Of a stretch of DNA of 64,000 bases, positions 34,565 through 45,966 are shown piece after piece. The translations under genes were made by a program, and so were the position numbers. Each line of letters begins with the position of its first letter. Position 1 is the stretch's first letter. A model generated the notes under the pieces. It was not told the origin of the DNA, searched no databases, and was given only the letters and a program-made list of their open reading frames with translations. Source of the DNA: Planctomycetota bacterium (GTDB lineage Bacteria > Planctomycetota > B15-G4); NCBI GenBank assembly GCA_029245865.1, contig JAQWOM010000056.1, forward strand, positions 30,417 to 94,416. Direction: 5' to 3'.

Positions 34565-35953
34565 ATGACTCACGAACATCCCACGGTGGAAGTCGACAGC
34601 TCGCGCAAACTCAGCTCACTCGATGCCACGCTGCTCGTCATGGGAGGCATCGTCGGCATTGGGATCTTCTTTGCGCCCCAGTCCATTGCTCAACTCATCC
34701 GTGAGCCCGGGGCCTACATGGCGATGTGGCTCTTCGGCGGACTCATCGCCTTGTGTGCAGCTTGGAGCTTCGCCGAGTTAGGAGGAACGTTCCCTCGCTC
34801 AGGCGGATGGTTTGTCTACCTTCGAGAAGCCTTCGGTGATTTCCCTGCCTACCTCTTCGCGTGGGTCGTGTTGTTTGTCATTTCGACCGGAGCTATGGCT
34901 GCGATCATCGGATTCACTGCTTCGATGCTGCACTCCGCTCTGCCTGGCCTCGTGGGCGGACCAGACTCGCTCAGCCACCACGTCGCAGCGATCTCGATCA
35001 TTGTTGCACTCACGGGCCTCACACTCTGCGGAATCAAGCACGCCGCACGACTTCAGAACATCTGCATGGTCGTGAAAGCCCTTGTCCTGCTCGGGCTCGC
35101 CATCACCGGCCTGGTCTTCACCACAGGCGACGCACCAATCGCCGCGGATCCGGCGACATTGGTCCCACTCGCACCTATCGAAAACAGCCTTCCTGAACGC
35201 ATGCTCGCTGCCTTGCTTCCCATCTTCTTCACCTTTGGCGGCTGGCAACTCATCTGCTACATCGCTCCAGAGTTGAGGGAACCGCGACGCTCACTGCCGC
35301 GCGCGATTGTCCTGGGCGTGCTGGGCGTCATGGCGCTCTACCTGACTGCCAACGCAGCTTTCCTGCAAGGACTAGGCCCCGAACAGTTGGCTCGCGACCC
35401 CACCTTTGCCAGCACCCTCGCCCGCACAGCCCTGGGAACAACAGGCGAGAGATTGTTCAGTGCGGGCATCGCCATCTCAGCCATTGGTGTCTGCGCCGTG
35501 AACGTGATTGCCGGCCCCTGGCTCTACGTCGCCATGGCGCGCGAAAAACTATTCTTCGCCACCATCGGTCGCGTGCATCCAAGGAGAGGTGTCCCCGTGA
35601 ATGCACTCCTTCTCCAGGCTGCTCTCGTCCTGGTGTATTACTTCAACAGCACGCTTCAAGACCTGGTGATCTCGGTGGTCTTCATCGAATGGATCTTCCA
35701 TGGGCTCGCCGCACTCGCACTCATGCGACTGAGGTTCCGCCGCCCAGAACTCCCTCGGCCATTTCGAAGCCCGTTCTATCCGTTGGCTCCCCTCGTCTAT
35801 GCCGCCACCGCTGTCCTCATCGTGATAGGGACCCTCTGGCAGGAAGACAGATCTATCACCTGGACCGGGCTCAGCCTGCTTGCCGTCGGCGCGCTGGTCT
35901 ACCGCCCGTGGCGAATGCTCGTCGAACGCGCGGGACCGTCGCAACAGGGCTAG
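34565..35953 (+). CDS. APC-family amino acid permease
   Basis: Motifs GGIVGIGIFF, AELG-x-x-FP-x-SGG, YLREAFG, FGGW, E-x-R-x-P-x-R-x-LPRAI and RPFR; about 12 TM segments. Confidence 0.9.
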   Translation: MTHEHPTVEVDSSRKLSSLDATLLVMGGIVGIGIFFAPQSIAQLIREPGAYMAMWLFGGLIALCAAWSFAELGGTFPRSGGWFVYLREAFGDFPAYLFAWVVLFVISTGAMAAIIGFTASMLHSALPGLVGGPDSLSHHVAAISIIVALTGLTLCGIKHAARLQNICMVVKALVLLGLAITGLVFTTGDAPIAADPATLVPLAPIENSLPERMLAALLPIFFTFGGWQLICYIAPELREPRRSLPRAIVLGVLGVMALYLTANAAFLQGLGPEQLARDPTFASTLARTALGTTGERLFSAGIAISAIGVCAVNVIAGPWLYVAMAREKLFFATIGRVHPRRGVPVNALLLQAALVLVYYFNSTLQDLVISVVFIEWIFHGLAALALMRLRFRRPELPRPFRSPFYPLAPLVYAATAVLIVIGTLWQEDRSITWTGLSLLAVGALVYRPWRMLVERAGPSQQG

Positions 35954-36012
35954 GAGGCATTCACAAGAGGGCAAGGCTGCATCCGCCCTCCAGAAATGAT
36001 CTGCTGAAGGAC

Positions 36013-36279
36013 ATGGATGGCCAACCGGACAAGACTCCCGATCCCCGCGGCTACTGGCGCGCGAATCTTCGACTGGTGTCCCTATTGCTCGTCATCTGGG
36101 CGATCGCCTCCTTCGGGCTCTCCATCATCTTCGTCGAGCCCCTGAATGAAACGCGCCTCGCCGGCTTCCCGCTCGGCTTCTGGTTCGCACACCAGGGAAG
36201 CATCTACGTCTTCATCCTGCTGCTGGTCGCATACGCACTGCTCGCCGATCGCATCGCTCGCAAATACGGCGTGGACTGA
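36013..36279 (+). CDS. DUF4212 small subunit associated with sodium:solute symporters
   Basis: YWRANLRL...GFPLGFWFA-x-QGSI-x-VF-x-x-L...Y; immediately upstream of the SSS gene. Confidence 0.9.
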   Translation: MDGQPDKTPDPRGYWRANLRLVSLLLVIWAIASFGLSIIFVEPLNETRLAGFPLGFWFAHQGSIYVFILLLVAYALLADRIARKYGVD

Positions 36280-36291
36280 GAGGTGCGTTAA

Positions 36292-38007
36292 GTGGACATC
36301 CCCGGCTGGACATACCTCACCGTCGGATTGTCTTTCTCGCTGTACATCGGCATCGCCATCTGGACCCGCGCAAAGAGCACCAAGGGGTTCTACGTCGCGG
36401 GGCAGGGCGTGCCCGCACTCGCGAACGGCATGGCAACGGGTGCCGACTGGATGTCTGCAGCATCCTTCATCTCCATGGCGGGACTCATCTCGTTCATGGG
36501 CTACACGGGCACCGTCTACCTCATGGGCTGGACAGGCGGCTACGTGCTGCTGGCTCTCTTGCTCGCGCCTTATCTACGCAAGTTTGGTCGTTTCACCGTG
36601 CCCGACTTTGTGGGCGCTCGCTACGAATCGGATGCCGCGCGCATCGTCGCAGTCGTGTGCGCCATCTTCGTGTCTTTCACCTACGTCTCGGGGCAAATGC
36701 GCGGCGTGGGCGTCGTCTTCTCACGCTTCCTCGAAGTTCCCGTAAACACGGGAGTCATCATCGGCATGGCACTCGTGTTCGTGTACGCAACCCTGGGCGG
36801 TATGCGCGGCATCACCTACACGCAGGTCGCGCAATACGTGGTGCTGATCATCGCGTATCTCATTCCGGCCGTGGCCATCAGTTGGACCATGACCGGCAAT
36901 CCGGTGCCTCAGCTAGGCTTCGGCGACACCATCAAGGACGGACAGCACGCGGGACTCTATCTACTCGAAGCCCTGGATGGCATTCATCGAGACCTTGGCT
37001 TGCCCGAGTACACCGCCGCCTTCGTTGCCGGCAAGAAAAGCATGATCGACGTGGGCGCCATCACATTGGCCCTCATGGTAGGTACCGCGGGCCTGCCCCA
37101 CGTACTCATCCGTTTCTACACGGTAAAGAGCGCGCGGGCCGCACGCTGGAGTGTCATGTGGGCGCTGATCTTCATCGGCCTGCTCTACACGGCGGCGCCG
37201 GCGGTGGCGGCCTTTGCCCGGGTGAACATGGTGGACAGCCTGCACGGCACGGCCTACTCGGAAGCTCCTCCCTGGTTCAAAACCTGGGAGACCACCGAAC
37301 TGATTGCCTTCGAGGACAAGAACGCCGACGGCGTCATCACTTACAGCGGCGACCAGGCGGTCAACGAGTTGCACGTCGACCGCGACATCATGGTGCTCGC
37401 GAATCCGGAGATTGCTCGCCTGCCAGCCTGGGTCGTGGCATTGGTGGTGGCGGGCGCATTGGCGGCAGCGCTGTCAACGGCTGCCGGCTTGCTGCTGGTC
37501 ATCTCATCTGCCGTTTCCCACGACCTCATCAAATCGATCTGGGCGCGTGACCTCAGCGACCAAAAAGAGCTGCGAATCGCTCGCTGGGCTGCGGGCGGGG
37601 CCGTGGTCGTGGCGGGCGTTGTCGGCATCTACCCGCCGGGCTTTGTCGCGCAAGTGGTGGCCTTTGCGTTCGGTTTGGCTGCTTCCAGCTTCTTCCCCGT
37701 GCTGGTGCTGGGCATCTTCAACCGCCGGGTGAACAAACAGGGTGCCATCGCCGGCATGGTCAGCGGACTGCTGTTCACGGCGCTGTACATCGTGTGGTTC
37801 CGTTTCGTGGATCCGAGCGCCGGCGCGGAGCAGTGGTGGTTCGGCATCAGCCCCGAGGGCATCGGTTCCCTGGGCATGATGCTGAACTTTGCCGTGATGC
37901 TCACCGTGAGCCACCTGACGCCGCCCCCTTCCGAAGAGGTGCGCACGATGGTCGAAGAACTGCGCCTCCCCCGCCAAACCACACCGCAGGGCTCCAAGAT
38001 CATTTGA
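36292..38007 (+). CDS. Sodium:solute symporter (ActP-related subfamily)
   Basis: Motifs NGMAT-x-ADWMSAASFISMAG, GWTGGYVLLA, APYLRKFG-x-FTVPDF and GTAGLPHVLIRFYTV. Confidence 0.93.
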   Translation: MDIPGWTYLTVGLSFSLYIGIAIWTRAKSTKGFYVAGQGVPALANGMATGADWMSAASFISMAGLISFMGYTGTVYLMGWTGGYVLLALLLAPYLRKFGRFTVPDFVGARYESDAARIVAVVCAIFVSFTYVSGQMRGVGVVFSRFLEVPVNTGVIIGMALVFVYATLGGMRGITYTQVAQYVVLIIAYLIPAVAISWTMTGNPVPQLGFGDTIKDGQHAGLYLLEALDGIHRDLGLPEYTAAFVAGKKSMIDVGAITLALMVGTAGLPHVLIRFYTVKSARAARWSVMWALIFIGLLYTAAPAVAAFARVNMVDSLHGTAYSEAPPWFKTWETTELIAFEDKNADGVITYSGDQAVNELHVDRDIMVLANPEIARLPAWVVALVVAGALAAALSTAAGLLLVISSAVSHDLIKSIWARDLSDQKELRIARWAAGGAVVVAGVVGIYPPGFVAQVVAFAFGLAASSFFPVLVLGIFNRRVNKQGAIAGMVSGLLFTALYIVWFRFVDPSAGAEQWWFGISPEGIGSLGMMLNFAVMLTVSHLTPPPSEEVRTMVEELRLPRQTTPQGSKII

Positions 38008-38034
38008 CGTAAGCAAAAGTCCCGGCTATATACT
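38004..38034 (+). promoter_or_regulatory. Sigma70-type promoter placing the transcription start at or near the ATG at 38041
   Basis: TTGACG (38004-38009), 17-bp spacer, then TATATACT (38027-38034) ending 6 nt before the ATG; no Shine-Dalgarno sequence. Confidence 0.6.
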
Positions 38035-38040
38035 CACCGT

Positions 38041-38370
38041 ATGCAGGCCCGCCTCCTCACCCTCGCGCTGTTGACGCTTATTAGCTGTGAGCCCTTCCAT
38101 CAGTGGGTTCACGGCAATAACGGGGCCATCTCGTCGGGTCAGTACGAAATCCACGACGGCGACTGCGAACACCAGCCCGAGCATCGCGAGAGTGATCAAT
38201 GCCCGCTCTGCATCAAGGGTCATGGCGACGCCCTGGCGATGCAAAGCCCCTCTCCCGCCGGCAGAGAGCTGGCTCCGAGCAGGGTCACATCAGGGGCACC
38301 AAGCTCCGACATACTGCGTGAAACGCTTGTAGGCGCTCAAGGAGCAAGGGCTCCCCCGGTCATCAGCTGA
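38041..38370 (+). CDS. DUF2946-like (CruR/CutF-type) His/CxxC leader protein ending in RAPP
   Basis: N-terminal hydrophobic segment, His-rich middle, CPLC and C-terminal ARAPPVIS; first gene ahead of a metal uptake operon. Confidence 0.75.
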   Translation: MQARLLTLALLTLISCEPFHQWVHGNNGAISSGQYEIHDGDCEHQPEHRESDQCPLCIKGHGDALAMQSPSPAGRELAPSRVTSGAPSSDILRETLVGAQGARAPPVIS

Positions 38371-38376
38371 GTGATT

Positions 38377-38403
38377 GCCTGCCTTCGGGCGGGCCTCTTA
38401 TTC
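38377..38403 (+). terminator. cUUCGg hairpin with pyrimidine tail just after the leader ORF (possible attenuator)
   Basis: GCCTGCC-TTCG-GGCGGGC followed by CTCTTATTC. Confidence 0.5.
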
Positions 38404-38529
38404 ACCCTGCTGCCTTCTCCCGACCGGGAATACGCTTTCATGTTAGTCCGTCAATTGAACCGGGCGCATCCACGCCCGTCCTCCGATTCTTTTCCATTCC
38501 AACAACCAGCCAGCGGCTTGATTCGTGTC

Positions 38530-39915
38530 ATGCGAGCGAGGCTTCTGCCCTTGCTCCTCCTCACCCTGGGGCTGATGCCCGCCGCTCTCGCGCAATCTAC
38601 CGGCACACCCGACGCACCCGACGCACCCGACGCAACGGACGCAAATAAAGATCTGCGCGAAGCGCTTCGCCAGGCCCTTGCGACCATCGCCAACCTGGAA
38701 AAACGCGTCTCGCAACTCGAAACAGTTAAAGGCAGCGAAGACCCCATGGAGGCGCAACTGCGGCGCCTCATGACACCGGTCGAAGCCGCGCCCGCGCAGC
38801 GCACAGTGTTCCCTAGCTCGAACAATCCGCGCATCGGGGTCTATATGAATGCCGTGATCGAATCCGGCAACGTCGAGGAAAAGCTGGGAGAAAACGGGGA
38901 TCGATTCTCGCTCAGTGAAACCGAAATCGATTTCCGGATGCCCATTGCTCCCTTCGCTGAGGGCGTCCTCGTCACCGCGATCGAGGACGAAGGCAACAAC
39001 GAATTCCACACCACGATCGAGGAAGGCTACGCCAACGTTTCCCTGGGGGGACTCTTCGACTTCGAAAGTGCCACGCTGGCAAAGATTGGTCGGTTCCGCA
39101 TTCCGTTCGGCCGAGACAACCAGTTGCACACGCACGACCTGATGCAGGTGGACCGGCCGTTTGTCATCACGCAGTTACTTGGCGGTGAGGGGCTCATCGG
39201 AGACGGTATCGAGTTCACCACTCCTCTCGCACACAGTGAGTCCAAGGACGGCTATGGCAGAACAACAACACTGAAGGCCGCTCTGGTCAATGGCGAGGTG
39301 TTTACTGGAGAGGAGTCCTTGCTCGGCGAGTTGGCAGACGACGCCGGCCTCTCCTTGGATTCGGACGCGCCCGTTCTGGTGGCACGCGCCACCCATTACA
39401 TGGAGCTCAGTGAACTTTCCAACATCGAAGTGGGCGTTTCAGTCCTCGACAACGTCGGAAGCAACGCAGTGAAAGTCGAGTCCGGAAGTAAGATCGACAC
39501 CCGCATGTATGGTGTCGACGTTCTCTGGCGCAACCATGACGACGAGACCGGCGTCGGCAGTTGGCTTCTCCAGGGCGAAGCCGTGCAGTCAGACTTCGAC
39601 TACGGAAAGCCTTCCGGAGGAGGCTTCCCCACGGGCTCGCAAACTCGTCGAGGCGTCTCAGTCACAGCGCAACGTCAGTTGAACCCGGATATGTATGCCG
39701 GTCTCCGCGTAGGAAAAACAGATCAACTGGGTACGGATCTGAAGGTGCGCAACATCACGCCTTACATTTCCTGGTACCCCGATGAATTCTTCCGCATCCG
39801 CCTACAGGGCGAGCACCTGGATGTCGACCCGGGGAGCAATGCCAGTCGCGTCTTCCTCCAGTTCAGCTGGAACTTTGGCGCACACCAACCTCACCCGTAC
39901 TGGACCAACCGCTGA
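38530..39915 (+). CDS. Outer-membrane beta-barrel/porin associated with metal ABC uptake
   Basis: Signal peptide, coiled coil, NPRIG, IEEGY, GRF...FG-x-x-NQLHTHD, amphipathic strands and a C-terminal FGAHQPHPY. Confidence 0.75.
   Translation: MRARLLPLLLLTLGLMPAALAQSTGTPDAPDAPDATDANKDLREALRQALATIANLEKRVSQLETVKGSEDPMEAQLRRLMTPVEAAPAQRTVFPSSNNPRIGVYMNAVIESGNVEEKLGENGDRFSLSETEIDFRMPIAPFAEGVLVTAIEDEGNNEFHTTIEEGYANVSLGGLFDFESATLAKIGRFRIPFGRDNQLHTHDLMQVDRPFVITQLLGGEGLIGDGIEFTTPLAHSESKDGYGRTTTLKAALVNGEVFTGEESLLGELADDAGLSLDSDAPVLVARATHYMELSELSNIEVGVSVLDNVGSNAVKVESGSKIDTRMYGVDVLWRNHDDETGVGSWLLQGEAVQSDFDYGKPSGGGFPTGSQTRRGVSVTAQRQLNPDMYAGLRVGKTDQLGTDLKVRNITPYISWYPDEFFRIRLQGEHLDVDPGSNASRVFLQFSWNFGAHQPHPYWTNR
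38606..38632 (+). repeat. In-frame 9-bp tandem repeat (CACCCGACG x3; PDA linker)
   Basis: Read directly from the sequence. Confidence 0.85.
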
Positions 39916-40874
39916 TGAATATCCCCACACTCTTGCTCGCCGCGACGCTGGCGCTTGTCGGAAACGATGTCAGCGAAATCGCCTCGAGTTCACAACCTGG
40001 CGCACAGGTCCAGAAGGACACGGTGCCGATCAAGGTCATTGCGACTGTGCCCACTTATGCTCGACTCGCCGAAGTGATCGGTGGAGATCAGGTGGATGTG
40101 GTGCTTCTGACCCGCCCGACTCAGGATGTGCATTCGGTTCGCGCCACTCCGTCACTCATGGCACGCGTACGAAACTCAAACCTGTGCTTGCATACAGGTC
40201 TCGACGCCGAACTGTGGCTGGACGGCCTCTTGCGCGGATCGGCAAATCTGGACCTGCTGCCGGGGAACCCCAACTCCATTGCCATGTCTGACGGCATCGC
40301 ATTGAAAGAGGTCCCGGGCATCGTCGACCGCTCGCAGGGAGACCTGCACGCCTTCGGCAACATTCATATCTGGGCGGATCCGTACAACGTTCGCATCATG
40401 GCCGGGCACGTGCGTGACGCGCTCATCAGGCAACGCCCCTCAGAAGCCGAGGCCATCACGGAGCGTCACGCGGCTTTCCACAAGCAACTAACCCAAGCTC
40501 TCATCAAATGGCTCACCGAGTACCAATCGCTCAAGAGCCAGCCTGTGGTGGTCTACCACCGCTCGTGGATTTACTTTCTCGATCGCTTTGGCTTGATACA
40601 GGACGGTACCCTGGAACCCAAACCACGAGTGGCACCGACGGCTTCACATCTCGCTAAACTTGAAAAGAAGATGAATGAGCAAGGCGTTCACGTGATTCTC
40701 CGCGAACCTTTTCAACATCCCGAAGCGGCCGATCACGTCGCGGATGCGACAGGTGCCAGCGTGCTCTTGCTCTCCACTCACCCGGGCTATCCCGAGGGCG
40801 TCAACGGCATCATCGAGCACTTCGACTACAACCTGCGCAAGATTGCCAACACCTTGACTGCGGACGATGGCTGA
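39915..40874 (+). CDS. Zn/Mn ABC transporter substrate-binding protein (ZnuA/TroA family)
   Basis: Motifs QDVH, G-x-DAELWL, GDLHAFGNIHIW, YH-x-SW-x-YF and EPKP-x-x-x-PT. Confidence 0.9.
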   Translation: MNIPTLLLAATLALVGNDVSEIASSSQPGAQVQKDTVPIKVIATVPTYARLAEVIGGDQVDVVLLTRPTQDVHSVRATPSLMARVRNSNLCLHTGLDAELWLDGLLRGSANLDLLPGNPNSIAMSDGIALKEVPGIVDRSQGDLHAFGNIHIWADPYNVRIMAGHVRDALIRQRPSEAEAITERHAAFHKQLTQALIKWLTEYQSLKSQPVVVYHRSWIYFLDRFGLIQDGTLEPKPRVAPTASHLAKLEKKMNEQGVHVILREPFQHPEAADHVADATGASVLLLSTHPGYPEGVNGIIEHFDYNLRKIANTLTADDG

Positions 40875-41667
40875 CGGAGGCACACGAGCCCCGACCTTGC
40901 TCCGGGTGATGGATGTCTCGGCGGGTTACGGAAAACTCCGTACGCTCTCGAACGTTTCCATCGATGTCCAACGCGGGAAGGTCACGGCGCTCGTCGGCCC
41001 CAATGGCTGTGGGAAAACAACGTTACTGCGCGTCCTCCTGGGGCTGCTGAACCCGCAAGCGGGTTCCGTCGAATGGCCCCAGGGGCGCGTGCGCGTCGGT
41101 TACGTCCCGCAGGCCGACGCCTCCGAACAAATCTTTCCGGTGTCGGCCCTCGAAGTGGTGTGCATGGGTCTCACGCCCGGCATGGCTCTGCTGCGCTCTC
41201 CAGGAAGCAGGGAACGGGCAGACTGTCAGGAGGCCATGGAACGCTTCGATGTGGCACGCCTCGCGGGCCATCCGTTTCGCGAGTTGTCCGGAGGTCAACG
41301 CCAGCGCGTCATGCTTGCCCGGGCCACCGTGGCCAACCCCGAACTCCTGGTCCTGGACGAACCGGTGCGCGGTCTCGATTTCGCCAGTTCAGCCAAGCTG
41401 GTGTCGTCGATGCGGGACCTCGCTCTGAACGGCGGAATGGCCGTCGTCGTGGCAACGCACAGTCTCGACCTGGTGGCCAACTACGCCGACACCGTCGCTC
41501 TGTTCAAGGAAGGACGCGTGCTAGCGGGGCCTGTCGCCGAAATACTGGATGACGCCCATCTCACCGACTACCTGGGAACGCCCATCCACGTCGCCGAGGT
41601 CGACGGAATACGCATGGTCGTCCCGGGAGAGATGGTGACACGATCCGTCGATGAGCAGCGGCCATGA
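40867..41667 (+). CDS. Zn/Mn ABC transporter ATPase (ZnuC-like)
   Basis: Motifs GPNGCGKTT, VGYVPQ, ELSGGQRQRV-x-LARA, LDEP and TH. Confidence 0.9.
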   Translation: MADGGTRAPTLLRVMDVSAGYGKLRTLSNVSIDVQRGKVTALVGPNGCGKTTLLRVLLGLLNPQAGSVEWPQGRVRVGYVPQADASEQIFPVSALEVVCMGLTPGMALLRSPGSRERADCQEAMERFDVARLAGHPFRELSGGQRQRVMLARATVANPELLVLDEPVRGLDFASSAKLVSSMRDLALNGGMAVVVATHSLDLVANYADTVALFKEGRVLAGPVAEILDDAHLTDYLGTPIHVAEVDGIRMVVPGEMVTRSVDEQRP

Positions 41668-42938
41668 CTGGGTGGCTGGATGGGACTGCTTTCGCAGCGA
41701 TTCCCGGAGCGGTGGCAGGCGGACTGATCGCCGGAACCTTGCTCCCGCTTCTGGGCATGTGGGTGGTCTTGCAGCGCGTGGTGTTCCTGGGTGTCACGCT
41801 CGCTCAGGTGGCCGCTGCCGGCGTAGCGCTCGGCCTGATACTGAACCTGCCCTCGCTGCCATTTGGCATGGCGGTCACACTGGGCCTTGTCACGCTGGTC
41901 GGGTCACGTCAGCGCCTCACCCGACTGGGCGACGCAGCATTGGGCGCGGGTTTCTGCGTGGCCTCTGCACTCTCGCTGCTGTTCATCTCACGGTCCGCCT
42001 CGGATCTAGATGAAGTCAACCACGTCCTCTACGGCAATCTGATCTACGCTGCACCTGAGGCCGTGTGGACGGTTGGTATCACGCTGGCAGCGTGCGCCAC
42101 AATCATTGTGATTTTTTTCAAAGAGCTTCTTTTCACGTCCTTTGATGCGGAATCTGCAGCGGCTCTTGGCATGCGTGCACGCGGCTGGCAACTGCTGCTC
42201 TTTCTTGTGCTTGCACTCGCGCTCTCGGTGTCCATGCGCACCACGGGATCGCTGCTCTCCTTTGCCATGTTGGTGCTCCCTCCGCTCGCAGCACTCCGAC
42301 TGCGCGTCGGGCTACGCACCACTTTCACTCTCTCTGCCGTGCTCGGCTTCCTGGGCACACTGGCGGGCCTTGCGCTGGCCGTGTCTGCAGATCTGCACGT
42401 TGAATCGTCCATCACCATCGCACTCTTCATGATGATTCCAATCTGCGCGGCGTGGAGGCGACACCCGGCATGGGGCCTTGCCCTCGCAGGTGCGCTCTTT
42501 GCCGCAGGCGCCTCGATCACTCCGACCGACTCCGGAGATGCACACCGACACCATCACGATGCCGCCATCGTTGCAGCTGCAGGCGATCCTTTTCATGCGG
42601 ACGTGGCTCTCCTGGCCACCCAACCCCTGGCCGGAGGCCCTCTGCGCATCGAATGGAGCATTGACATCCATCGAGACCCCGAAGAGACACAGGTTCCACC
42701 CGCTGTCTGGTTGCTTCTGTCCAGCGAGGGCCTTTTTGACGAACACCTGCTCGTGCCGGATCTCTACGCACTTCCCGCGGGCGACTCTCTTCACACCGGC
42801 ACCTACTTGGTGGACGTGGACAGACCGATTCACCACATCGACGGCCAATTGTGGAGCGGGCCCTCGGACAGCATGGACTCCGAACCGCTCGACCCCGCAC
42901 ATACCTCTGTGGAAAGCTGCGACGTCACCCGGCGTTAG
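41664..42938 (+). CDS. Zn/Mn ABC transporter permease (ZnuB-like) with His-rich C-terminal extension
   Basis: Motifs LG-x-WVVL-x-R-x-VF-x-G-x-x-LAQ, LYGN and KELLFTSFD, plus an extra ~150-aa C-terminal region. Confidence 0.87.
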   Translation: MTGWLDGTAFAAIPGAVAGGLIAGTLLPLLGMWVVLQRVVFLGVTLAQVAAAGVALGLILNLPSLPFGMAVTLGLVTLVGSRQRLTRLGDAALGAGFCVASALSLLFISRSASDLDEVNHVLYGNLIYAAPEAVWTVGITLAACATIIVIFFKELLFTSFDAESAAALGMRARGWQLLLFLVLALALSVSMRTTGSLLSFAMLVLPPLAALRLRVGLRTTFTLSAVLGFLGTLAGLALAVSADLHVESSITIALFMMIPICAAWRRHPAWGLALAGALFAAGASITPTDSGDAHRHHHDAAIVAAAGDPFHADVALLATQPLAGGPLRIEWSIDIHRDPEETQVPPAVWLLLSSEGLFDEHLLVPDLYALPAGDSLHTGTYLVDVDRPIHHIDGQLWSGPSDSMDSEPLDPAHTSVESCDVTRR

Positions 42939-42993: not shown

Positions 42994-45966
42994 TCATAAG
43001 TCTCCAAATTCTCCAGAGGCCTTTTGGAGCTCGGCTGCCAGGGACTGACCTTCTTCCGATAGATCCTGCTTTCCCAGGAATGCGCCCACTTGCTCTTTGC
43101 TCTTGGAGAGCACCTCGTCATGCTGCCACCTGACATTCCCCTGCTCCATCAACATTTCGCCAGCTAGGTTTCTGAGCCTGGCGAGCTCCGGTGCAGACAA
43201 CTGGATTTCTGAGTTCACCGACAAGAAGATTCCAAGGTTGTAAAAATCAGTGGCCAACTCGAAATCACAATAACCAGCCTCTACATCTTGCAGATCCTGA
43301 AACGCCGCGCCCTCCCTTTGATCTTGAGCATGTTGGTTCTTCACTCGAATCAGTTGCAGCTCAACCCCACTCAAGTAAAGCTCGACCAGCTCATCAAAAA
43401 TCGCTGCGGCTCCCTCCGTATCCCCACGCTCTTTATGTGCCAACCACTCAAAATTCATCGCCTGGTAAAGCGCCCTGAGGCTGATCAAGGTGGAGATATT
43501 GTATTTCCCGGAAGTCTTCCGCTTCTGTGCGAGCGTCTCCTTGGCAACGTCGAGAGCGCCCTGATGGTCACCCAGGCCATCGAGTAAGAGTCCATAGCCA
43601 GTCTTCGCCTGAAGTGTATTCAGGTTCTCAGGACCGAACGTGCTCTCCATCTGCGCAACGACTTCCGAGTAGAGCTTCAGAGATCGCTGCCCGCTGGCTG
43701 CTTTTTCCTCGGACCGAGAGACAACGTCCATTCTGTAGAACTGCTCCAAGAGCGCCCAACCGAGACGCCACTTGGGGATCAGGACGTTGAGCGGGGTTGT
43801 TCCCGGTTCGCCATGAGAAATCTCGCTCCACCAGGCCAGGACATCCTCGACTTGAAGCACGGCCGCCTCGTAATAAGCCATCCTGCTCAGTGACATGGCC
43901 CACTCAAGCTGAAGATCCCGCGTCAGCGGGTGATTGGCCCCCATCAAGCGTTCGTTTCCCAACGCCTGCTTGTAGAAATCACCGAAGAGCCTTTCCGCCT
44001 CTTCGTACTCCTTGAGATGAGAGTGCAAAAGGCCCTTTGCAAGGCCAAGCTTCATGACGCGAGGGTGTGACGGAGGCAAGTAGTTGCCCAGCGTCTCCAT
44101 GCGTCTGTTCAAGTACTTCTCTGGGTCCTCAATTTCCCTTCTAAAGCGCAAGAGGTCTTGCTCAAGGTCACCGCGCAAAGCTGCAATAAGCAGGTTGGTC
44201 CGCACGGGAGCGAGACGCTTCTCAAGATCTTCAAGCTCGGCTTGAATCTGAAGTGACTCCACAGATGAAATGGACACATCCTCATACTTACCTCGAAGCT
44301 TGTTGGCTCTCTGTCTGTAGGTCTCCTGCCACTCCCACAGCCCCTCGACCGCCCTGTGGTACTCACCTTGCTCGAGCTCGATAAGCGCCTTGTACTTCAC
44401 GGGGAACTCACCGAGTGCTGCTCCTGCTATCCCAGCGACTTCCGCTTCATCCAGAATCCTCTTTGCCTCCTCATGAAGGCAGTACTCAAGATGTGCATCG
44501 ATGAGCCTGCGGTAAGCACGCGCTCGCATCGCGAGTGACGCATTCGAGCCCTGGCCACACAGCTCATAAAGCGCTTTGCCCTCAGCATTAAGCTGAAACA
44601 ACGGAACGCCCTGCGGGACGCTTCGGTCGAGATCAAAGAACACAGGCTCCCGCTCAAACTTCGTAAGCAGCTCCTGAATCGCAAAATTCGCGAACTCTTC
44701 CGTGTTCTGTGAGAGCTCTTCGTCAAGCAGTCGGTTCTCTTCCTTGAGTTGCACCGACATGATGAACACCACACCGACGGTCGCCATAGCGAGGAAGATT
44801 CCGAGGGCCACTCCGACCAAAAGCTGCGGCCTTCGGCGGAGCCAGCGCCACCCCACTTTGAGACGTCCAGGGCGTACTGCGCTGATAGGTTCACCGGCCA
44901 AGAAGGCGTTCAAATCGCTGGAAACGGCAACCATATCGTCATATCGATGGGCCGGATTCTTCTCCATCATCTTCATCACGATGGTTGCGAGGTCTTCTGG
45001 AATACGAGCCCGAACCGACCGCGGATCTGGCACATCATAGGCCTGGACCTTCTGGCGAACGAGTTCCACAGAGTCGCCAAAAAATGGCTTCTGAAAAGTC
45101 AGCGCTTCGTAGAGGGTTGTTCCGAGAGCAAACATCTCAGTGCGTGCGTTTGAGATTCCGTCGAACTGCTCTGGAGACATATACATTGGAGTCCCGATGA
45201 GCTCCCCTAGCAGAGAGATCTCCACCTGGTCATCCATCTGACCCAACCCAAAGTCGATGAGCCGCGCCCGGCCGTCATCTCCGATCAAGATGTTGGCGGG
45301 CTTCACATCCCGGTGAAAGATCTCTAAATCGTGCACCGTCTCCATCGCAAGAGAGACATCCAGGAACCAGGCGGCCACCTTCCGATCGTATTGCTCCCCG
45401 AACGCCTGGTTCGCCGAAAGTTCTTCAGCATGAAGCTTGAGCAGTTCACTGAGTGTTTGCGAACCCTCGACAAGTTCCTGGACGAGATATGGAATGCTTC
45501 CATAGAGGCCGCTCGCGTAGACAGACACAAGTCCTGGATGCCGGACTCCAGCGAGGATGCGCCCCTCTCGATCGAATCGATCACGCGCCCGATCAGAAAG
45601 CAGCGCCAAACTGAGTTGCAAAAACTTGATCGCGACAAGTCGATTGAGAGAGAGCTGGCGTGCCTCCCACACGACGGCGGAGCTTCCCGCCCCGAGCTCT
45701 CGAATCAGTTCATAGTCCCCATCAACAAGAACGCCGGCCGCAAACACCTGGTCCTTGTCGTGGACGATCCCGGCCAGCCTCAGGTGTTCTCGAATGCGTT
45801 CCTTGAGGAGAGGTCGCACATCCTCGGATTGTGCCGCGAGGAAGCCGTCGACCTGGTCCATCTCGCCGGCGCGGTAGAGTTCAAACCACTCTCCATAGGC
45901 CGCATCAACCCTGAAACTCAGGGGAACGGTTCCCGCTCCTTGAGTGCTGCTCGTGGGGTCATCCAT
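42994..45966 (-). CDS. Hanks-type Ser/Thr protein kinase with a hydrophobic segment and TPR-like C-terminus
   Basis: Motifs LGAG-x-x-x-x-V, VAIK, HRDVKPANIL, DFG and GTPMYMSPEQ; helical repeats such as GANHPLT and GPENLNTL. Confidence 0.92.
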   Translation of the reverse strand: MDDPTSSTQGAGTVPLSFRVDAAYGEWFELYRAGEMDQVDGFLAAQSEDVRPLLKERIREHLRLAGIVHDKDQVFAAGVLVDGDYELIRELGAGSSAVVWEARQLSLNRLVAIKFLQLSLALLSDRARDRFDREGRILAGVRHPGLVSVYASGLYGSIPYLVQELVEGSQTLSELLKLHAEELSANQAFGEQYDRKVAAWFLDVSLAMETVHDLEIFHRDVKPANILIGDDGRARLIDFGLGQMDDQVEISLLGELIGTPMYMSPEQFDGISNARTEMFALGTTLYEALTFQKPFFGDSVELVRQKVQAYDVPDPRSVRARIPEDLATIVMKMMEKNPAHRYDDMVAVSSDLNAFLAGEPISAVRPGRLKVGWRWLRRRPQLLVGVALGIFLAMATVGVVFIMSVQLKEENRLLDEELSQNTEEFANFAIQELLTKFEREPVFFDLDRSVPQGVPLFQLNAEGKALYELCGQGSNASLAMRARAYRRLIDAHLEYCLHEEAKRILDEAEVAGIAGAALGEFPVKYKALIELEQGEYHRAVEGLWEWQETYRQRANKLRGKYEDVSISSVESLQIQAELEDLEKRLAPVRTNLLIAALRGDLEQDLLRFRREIEDPEKYLNRRMETLGNYLPPSHPRVMKLGLAKGLLHSHLKEYEEAERLFGDFYKQALGNERLMGANHPLTRDLQLEWAMSLSRMAYYEAAVLQVEDVLAWWSEISHGEPGTTPLNVLIPKWRLGWALLEQFYRMDVVSRSEEKAASGQRSLKLYSEVVAQMESTFGPENLNTLQAKTGYGLLLDGLGDHQGALDVAKETLAQKRKTSGKYNISTLISLRALYQAMNFEWLAHKERGDTEGAAAIFDELVELYLSGVELQLIRVKNQHAQDQREGAAFQDLQDVEAGYCDFELATDFYNLGIFLSVNSEIQLSAPELARLRNLAGEMLMEQGNVRWQHDEVLSKSKEQVGAFLGKQDLSEEGQSLAAELQKASGEFGDL

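Follow-up and report, generated by a model that had tools for sequence, protein, structure and literature searches.

The subject of this analysis is a small open reading frame (ORF) and the operon that it heads in a stretch of 64,000 nucleotides (nt) from a Planctomycetota bacterium (contig JAQWOM010000056.1 of assembly GCA_029245865.1), hereafter the window. The ORF, read from the sequence as an ATG-opened frame of 109 codons with its TGA stop at 38368-38370, occupies 38041-38370 of the forward (+) strand, the strand of all the operon features described below. It is a real gene, probably a regulatory leader at the head of the five-gene operon leader-porin-znuA-znuC-znuB. The amino terminus of its product is MQAR followed by an 11-residue hydrophobic run, which is kept in relatives and would make aa 1-15 an export or anchor segment. 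It is followed by a cluster of histidines and cysteines (H20, H24, H38, C42, H44, C54xxC57) distributed over the motifs HQWVHG (aa 20-25), HDGDCEHQPEH (aa 38-48) and CPLC, a CxxC motif (aa 54-57; 38200-38211). A variable linker then leads to GARAPP, after which only the residues V-I-S precede the stop. RAPP, the candidate arrest motif (aa 103-106; 38347-38358), is 45 residues away from CxxC; both leader types presented below have R[AG]PP without exception in their alignments. Going by published work on RAPP and SecM, the stalled ribosome would presumably hold Pro105 in its P site while Pro106 occupies the A site (38353-38358). An earlier note on this DNA had singled out the ORF for its hydrophobic amino terminus, its histidine motifs, CPLC and a RAPP three codons before the stop, and all of these are found where it placed them.

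The leader is separated from the porin gene by an untranslated spacer of 159 nt (38371-38529), which is C-rich and G-poor (C 35%, T 28%, G 22% up to the porin ATG at 38530) and is a candidate site of Rho-dependent termination or of another form of attenuation. The four structural genes code for an outer-membrane porin of 461 aa (38530-39915), a ZnuA-type periplasmic metal-binding protein (39915-40874), an ATP-binding cassette (ABC) ATPase that is ZnuC/AztA-like (40867-41667) and a ZnuB-like ABC-3 permease (41664-42938). They overlap each other successively by 1, 8 and 4 nt. The importer proteins match the Pfam domains ZnuA (161.4 bits), ABC_tran (108.1 bits) and ABC-3 (108.8 bits, aa 15-256), all above the Pfam cut-offs. 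The Zn/Mn-type ABC importer recognized in the earlier note is present, with a His3-Glu site in its ZnuA component.

Comparisons at the protein level support a relationship, though a divergent one, between the leader and the DUF2946 (CruR/CutF) family of arrest-peptide leaders. Its sole Pfam match is to DUF2946 (PF11162; 22.5 bits, E 2.1e-4) and covers positions 36-117 of the 117 in the profile, i.e., the carboxyl terminus of the family. The hidden Markov model search recommended earlier did find the proposed family, but with a score short of its gathering cut-off. Within the window's own family the Pfam model retrieves one of ten genomes at E <= 0.01, a match that sits in a 966-aa frame with an internal stop and is spurious; a subfamily profile detects the leader in 13 of the 401 genomes sampled from the phylum, with 7 of the 10 other genomes of the family included in the 13. 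Relatives were collected by a word-indexed search that gave 4 homologues, whose profile recovered 23 sequences at E <= 0.001 among 1.8 billion representative proteins. The leader alignment comprises 26 sequences (the window and 25 relatives). Residues H24, H38, C42, C54, G101, R103, P105 and P106 are invariant in it, while H20, H44, C57 (at least 90%) and A102 are nearly so, the second position of RAPP being A or G. The RAPP and CxxC motifs that the earlier note expected to be conserved in orthologous loci are accordingly those that vary least, and the linker between them is free to vary in sequence and not in length. The CxxC-to-RAPP distance is 45 residues in the window and 44-46 in 11 of the 12 loci examined, the twelfth (L021) having lost its second cysteine. 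In CruR the two motifs are also 45 residues apart, a geometry shown to matter, with a tolerance of one or two residues (PMC9426467). The window leader (CxxC-45-RAPP plus three residues) has the identical spacing, which together with the near-threshold match bears out its assignment to the DUF2946/CruR/CutF type. A variable linker of fixed length is expected in an arrest leader rather than in a folded domain. Note that two sets of matches were discarded: five short hits of a narrow leader alignment to Alteromonadaceae/Xenorhabdus genome contigs (16-48 residues, E ~1e-4), regarded as spurious, and a second DUF2946-like match in the genome (C55, E 0.06), which lies inside a 711-aa ORF on the opposite strand.

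The order of genes is conserved beyond the window. Matches to the subfamily profile show the leader followed by the porin and Znu genes in six loci of the same family and in three distant ones; a tenth locus found with the leader profile has only a weak porin match, and locus L027 (G136) has a leader-like ORF with RGPP and no porin or Znu gene within 8 kb. A set of 80 metagenome loci was also fetched through the porin alone, which avoids selection by the leader. ZnuA is the next gene after the porin in all 72 of these loci with at least 500 nt of downstream sequence. An ORF ending in R[AGS]PP plus 1-5 residues lies upstream in 43 of the 47 loci with at least 450 nt available on that side, and L061 is a 44th on re-inspection; no such ORF was found by the same test in L053, L086 and L088. 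The background frequency of this ending is 18 in 3392 other frames of at least 60 codons (0.5%), two of the 18 being leader-like themselves. Several of the 80 loci are near-duplicates, and the distinct leader sequences number 45. The gene-neighbourhood survey suggested in the earlier note thus yields a recurrent leader-porin-ZnuA order (44/47 upstream, 72/72 downstream) in which the leader is always the first gene of the module. The proteins of the relatives bear Planctomycetota names, in agreement with the non-proteobacterial lineage that had been proposed. As a separate observation, six distant loci (L028, L030, L088, L094, L105, L109) have a ZnuB-like gene directly after ZnuA, and nothing between the two matches ZnuC, the ATPase.

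A second leader type occurs in loci with porins that share only 25-32% identity with the one in the window. It features WHNxxHAxEDA, HDESNCxxHAQLHxP, a second hydrophobic segment and CRGPP followed by two residues, and has CxxH 44 residues before RGPP. Intermediates that combine CxxC with the hydrophobic segment are found in L056, L081, L090 and L091, and a profile-profile comparison aligns the two types from end to end (probability 79%, E 1.6e-5). Named homologues of the second-type porin belong to Tepidisphaeraceae and Phycisphaerae, one being labelled Burkholderiales or Phycisphaerae depending on the source. The profile of the second-type leader matches 6 of the 401 genomes of the phylum sample, all weakly, which is uninformative on its range. 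In locus L039 a second leader-like ORF ending in GALGARAPPLMSV (~1443-1964, - strand of the locus) is positioned head-to-head with the leader of the porin operon and presumably heads a divergent operon.

The porin has a signal peptide, an amino terminus coiled coil and a predicted 16-strand barrel, and matches no Pfam family. Its AF2 model, computed from an alignment of 54 homologues, has a pLDDT of 87.8 and 16 strands; the top Foldseek matches are VhChiP, DcaP, OmpU/T, Omp32 and OprP (E ~1e-10, probability 1.00). The modelled fold and its likeness to trimeric porins uphold the earlier description of the protein as a porin that is not TonB-dependent. His, Glu and Asp make up most of its invariant residues. 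H200, H202 and D203 lie in a long loop between strands 5 and 6, which from the topology would correspond to the constriction-loop position of classical porins, and H452 and H455 are carboxyl-terminal. A Protein Atlas look-up gave unnamed clusters and one with Porin_O_P on 22% of its members, which is a lead only.

Among proteins of solved structure, the ZnuA protein is closest to the zinc-binding Lbp, Lmb, AdcAII and ZnuA. Its residues H73, H151, H215 and E264 align with the His/His/His/Glu set of Lbp (3gi1), which we take to be the zinc ligands of that protein. Where the contig covers the position, they are retained in 80 of 81 (H73), 79 of 79 (H151), 72 of 72 (H215) and 64 of 70 (E264) loci. 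The top NCBIfam families of the three importer proteins are AztC, AztA and AztB, all of them for zinc, with scores of 87.7 bits against a cut-off of 350 for AztC and 177.6 against 220 for AztA. The metal sensed and imported is most likely Zn(II), a reading favoured because the downstream binding protein carries a His3-Glu site; with no match at the equivalog level, zinc is a best guess. The permease features a carboxyl terminus extension of ~165 aa (42426-42935, +) composed of one additional transmembrane helix, a linker rich in His (HRHHHD) and a confidently predicted Ig-like beta-sandwich. Conservation of the extension extends to 8 related loci, and AF2 gives a pLDDT of 85.9. It has no match in the PDB at E <= 0.001, its nearest structures being CARDB and CLIPPER domains at E ~5e-3, as for a generic Ig-like sandwich, and may serve the permease as a fused domain that handles metal.

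A promoter-like site precedes the leader (38004-38032, +). It is composed of TTGACG (38004-38009) and TATATA (38027-38032) spaced by 17 nt, and ends 8 nt before the ATG. The elements of the promoter that the earlier note had aimed at the ATG are in place, but "near-consensus" was a generous term for 5/6 matches at -35 and 4/6 at -10 in a site that the consensus scan leaves uncalled. Of 17 related loci, 15 have TTGAC 35-40 nt 5' of the leader start, starts having been chosen by eye. So short a distance can accommodate a spacer, a -10 element and little more, and a leader mRNA whose 5' end falls on the ATG or a few nt before it, leaderless or near-leaderless, is a reasonable inference. Upstream of the leaders of L021-L026 and L033-L045, CGTG(G) is often present ~14 nt beyond TTGAC(A).

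On the other side of the leader, 6 nt past its stop, lies a stem of 7 bp closed by a UUCG loop (GCCTGCC-TTCG-GGCGGGC, 38377-38394, +), followed by the weak U-tract CTCTTATTCA. The cUUCGg hairpin and the C/T-rich spacer of about 160 nt are as described earlier, the exact spacer length being 159 nt. The proposal that the hairpin is an attenuator holds in part: a terminator scan lists the site at this locus, but the U-tract is weak (5 U in 10, not retained in relatives) and the hairpin is not conserved across the wider class. Loci of the same family have a stem-loop 5-15 nt after the leader stop. The stability of the window hairpin is ordinary (26th percentile of 50-nt windows), and the RNA structure of the whole spacer is unremarkable (z-score -1.14). 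An intrinsic terminator was rejected as a class-wide feature on the unremarkable stability over 55 loci and stays a candidate at the window locus. The spacers of related loci have a median length of ~100 nt from leader to porin; in 35 of 43 the C-over-G skew exceeds the locus mean, and 26 of the 43 fall into the top quartile. No purine-rich, Shine-Dalgarno-like run is present in the 15 nt before the porin ATG. Note that the porin frame is open across the entire spacer (38371-38529, +) in the same frame as the leader, with only the TGA at 38368-38370 intervening. A leader-porin fusion by read-through was considered and taken as chance, the two genes being in frame in only one of four relatives with a usable porin start (L025 and not L022, L023 or L026).

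Importers encoded by znuABC are classically kept under negative feedback by their own metal through the DNA-binding repressor Zur, and no leader peptide takes part. The window shares with that system the ZnuA/ZnuC/ZnuB-type importer and differs from it in the dedicated porin of its operon and in having no clear Zur gene or palindrome. The genome has two Fur-family genes, whose best-scoring families are Fur and PerR and which match Zur only weakly, and a search of the promoter region for a Zur box found no inverted repeat or AT-rich palindrome, the only one detected lying inside the ORF. Two rho-like genes are present (G000:C37:59864-61099 and G000:C28:119930-121036), one of them in a 653-aa frame that implies a long amino terminus extension.

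The two characterized systems with which the leader is best compared act with opposite polarity. CruR (Bp2923) of Bordetella pertussis is the DUF2946/PF11162 prototype and a copper sensor, whose arrest at RAPP keeps its operon on; copper relieves the arrest and leads to Rho-dependent termination in the spacer (PMC9426467). In CutF of Rhodobacter capsulatus copper prolongs the stall, and the stalled ribosome melts a stem-loop that hides the next ribosome-binding site (PMC9973294; bioRxiv 10.1101/2025.02.05.636593). The window resembles CruR in its small, putatively exported protein, whose gene comes first in an operon for outer-membrane uptake, where repression of the importer by its own metal is the expected logic, and in its spacer (162 nt there, 159 nt here). 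CruR, in contrast, belongs to a proteobacterium and controls a TonB-dependent transporter and a PepSY_TM protein in response to copper, while the window codes for a diffusion-type porin and a ZnuACB-type importer in a planctomycete; the window leader also has additional conserved His and Cys residues (HxxxH, HxGxCxH), a Pfam score below the cut-off and possibly a leaderless mRNA. With CutF it would share a nascent chain exported by Sec and sensing metal, a proline stall motif at the carboxyl terminus and a stem-loop just 3' of it, export and sensing being predictions for the window. CutF has CxxxC and PPP instead, and its copper-induced stall uncovers a Shine-Dalgarno site and thereby turns on an oxidase that detoxifies, whereas the cargo in the window is an importer and no Shine-Dalgarno-like run precedes the porin ATG. 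SecM and ApdA/ApdP stall at R-A-(P/G)-P in the peptidyl-transferase centre and are released by pulling force on the exported nascent chain. They have in common with the leader the RAPP/RAGP-type motif and differ in that they monitor the secretion machinery and carry no metal-binding site.

Taken together, the anatomy of the ORF, its family relationship and spacing, the operon layout, the porin fold and the binding-site residues make it fairly likely that the leader controls read-through of the operon by a metal-dependent, probably zinc-dependent, ribosome arrest. What follows about export and arrest, about the metal and the polarity, and about a part played by Rho is inferred. The mRNA would start at or beside the leader ATG, and the hydrophobic amino terminus would bring the translating ribosome to the Sec translocon. 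Peptide-bond formation would then stall at RAPP, shortly before the stop. As CxxC is 45 residues behind the stall, the His/Cys cluster (H20, H24, H38, C42, H44, C54, C57) would at this moment have freshly emerged on the periplasmic side, where its occupancy by metal, likely Zn(II), would set the duration of the arrest. The arrested ribosome would stand at the head of the 159-nt C-rich spacer, and its staying or release would decide whether transcription and translation proceed into the porin and importer genes. If the logic is that of CruR, arrest would persist at low metal, protecting the transcript and leaving the operon on; with metal bound, arrest would be relieved, the ribosome would terminate and Rho would end transcription in the spacer, switching the operon off. 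Four points favour the CruR logic: the operon serves uptake, its spacer is rich in C and poor in G, rho is present and there is no Shine-Dalgarno-like run to mask. For an importer, either polarity can yield negative feedback, depending on how the spacer acts.

Several observations weigh against this reading. The leader stays below the DUF2946 gathering cut-off (22.5 versus 23.7 bits, and 21.1 bits in a six-frame search), a cut-off that none of 40 related leaders passes and to which only 15 of the 40 give even a sub-threshold match. The identity of the metal is guessed from the neighbouring genes, Cys/His sites also bind Cu, Ni and Co, and the NCBIfam equivalog cut-off is reached by none of ZnuA, ZnuC and ZnuB. 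The (C-G) skew of the spacer lies only at the 92nd percentile of the window and is absent from 8 of 43 related spacers. The first 50 nt after the leader stop have a median stability percentile of 0.43 over 55 loci, with 6 of the 55 at <=0.1. The promoter-like site at 38004-38032 was not called by a sigma-70 consensus scan, because the scan demands T at position 6 of the -10 element. The genome is ~91% complete and a Zur gene could be unassembled. As for expression, contigs from four RNA libraries cover 38052-38368 (with no differences), 38096-38246, 38094-38335, 38359-38618 and 39727-39959, those covering the leader coming from three studies; they are weak hints that fit a transcribed leader and read-through reaching the porin and znuA, but they show no transcript ends, come from runs that were chosen with the stretch itself and may include carried-over DNA. 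The stretch also occurs in DNA runs of several studies labelled marine or seawater metagenome.

The leader could sense a metal other than zinc (copper, or Ni, Co or Mn) that the porin-ABC system would then import, which is unlikely but has a real chance of being correct. All DUF2946 leaders characterized in the sources used here respond to copper, which also counts against zinc; CxxC is a classic Cu(I) motif, the transporter has no equivalog-level assignment, and Ni or Co sensing was proposed for His-rich members (PMC9973294 section 11). The cargo and the second leader type speak for zinc instead: the top importer families AztC, AztA and AztB are all for zinc, and CxxH in place of CxxC in the distant leaders suits Zn or Ni better than Cu(I). 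His-His-His-Glu is the ligand set of zinc-binding proteins, while Mn and Fe binders have His-His-Glu-Asp. The binding protein of the window follows the former pattern, that of Lbp, AdcAII and ZnuA.

The polarity could also be that of CutF, with metal prolonging the arrest, the hairpin forming behind the polymerase and the transcript being ended or destabilized, so that metal would still repress import; without metal the ribosome would run to the stop codon and invade the stem, and transcription would continue. We consider this rather unlikely. Its appeal lies in CutF stalling with copper bound (bioRxiv 10.1101/2025.02.05.636593; PMC9973294) and in the geometry of the locus, where a ribosome with Pro105 in its P site would have its edge at ~38368, ~9 nt short of the stem at 38377, and one with the stop codon in its A site would reach ~38380 and open the stem. 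The hairpin is also called by the terminator scan, and same-family loci have their stem-loop at a comparable place after the stop. The model is rated low because the U-tract is weak, and not kept in relatives, and because stability over the 50 nt after the stop is ordinary in the 55 loci, so that the hairpin is not general across the class. In addition, the stem-loop of CutF hides a Shine-Dalgarno site, for which there is no counterpart in the 15 nt before the porin ATG. It is very improbable that the ORF codes instead for a stable small metallochaperone, membrane-anchored or periplasmic, that passes metal from the porin to ZnuA while RAPP is incidental or merely slows translation: the His/Cys cluster is the best conserved part of the leader, metal uptake operons often contain small metallochaperones and the second hydrophobic segment of the second leader type could be a membrane anchor, but the linker varies in sequence at a length of 44-46, R[AG]PP never varies and lies 1-5 residues before the stop throughout, the leader is always the first gene and is followed by a spacer, and CutF is undetectable in vivo in the published account (PMC9973294).

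One table of a study of Caulobacter Zur lists a DUF2946 protein beside czrCBA (PMC4176598), and Planctomycetes are mentioned with "a few" DUF2946 members (PMC9426467). The main text of PMC9426467 does not contain ABC, ZnuA, porin or zinc; in three of its supplements ZnuA, porin and zinc are absent and "ABC" occurs only within a strain name. Some CutF-like proteins are proposed to sense nickel or cobalt (PMC9973294 section 11), so the idea of other metals is already in print and the Znu-porin branch is not. No paper was found that ties DUF2946/CruR/CutF-type leaders to ZnuA-type importers, porins or zinc uptake, and Supplementary File S1 of PMC9973294 could list such neighbours. The comparisons presented here support a branch of CruR/CutF arrest leaders that is invisible to Pfam and tied to a porin and zinc-type importer module. 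As the Pfam DUF2946 model misses this branch, published surveys built on it would miss these leaders.

Sensing of a metal by arrest of a nascent exported peptide was experimentally shown so far only for copper and only in two proteobacteria. The locus and its many relatives indicate that the arrest device was adapted to a zinc-type import pathway (porin and ZnuACB) in lineages without evident Zur-type control. They also offer a case for how leaders encode metal specificity, through CxxC versus CxxH and added His residues, and point to an unannotated candidate family of metal-selective porins. A joint reading of these elements is possible, if doubtful as a whole. In these Planctomycetota and in uncultured soil and marine carriers, zinc uptake would be governed mainly by a nascent peptide and not by Zur. 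The peptide would read periplasmic zinc across the inner membrane while still bound to the ribosome, and on a leaderless mRNA the first ribosome on each transcript would make the measurement. The porin of the module would be lined with His, selective for zinc and dedicated to this task. In the variant represented by the second leader type (CxxH, hydrophobic segment, CRGPP), the pulling force that metal binding modulates would come from insertion of the segment into the membrane.

A sodium:solute symporter (SSF, 571 aa) lies immediately 5' of the leader, its stop codon overlapping the leader -35 element, and is itself preceded by a small membrane-protein ORF that resembles the usual small subunit of such symporters (35689-38007, +, for the two together). 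At the other end, a gene for a 990-aa Ser/Thr protein kinase with a long carboxyl terminus repeat region (42994-45966, -) converges on the end of the operon.

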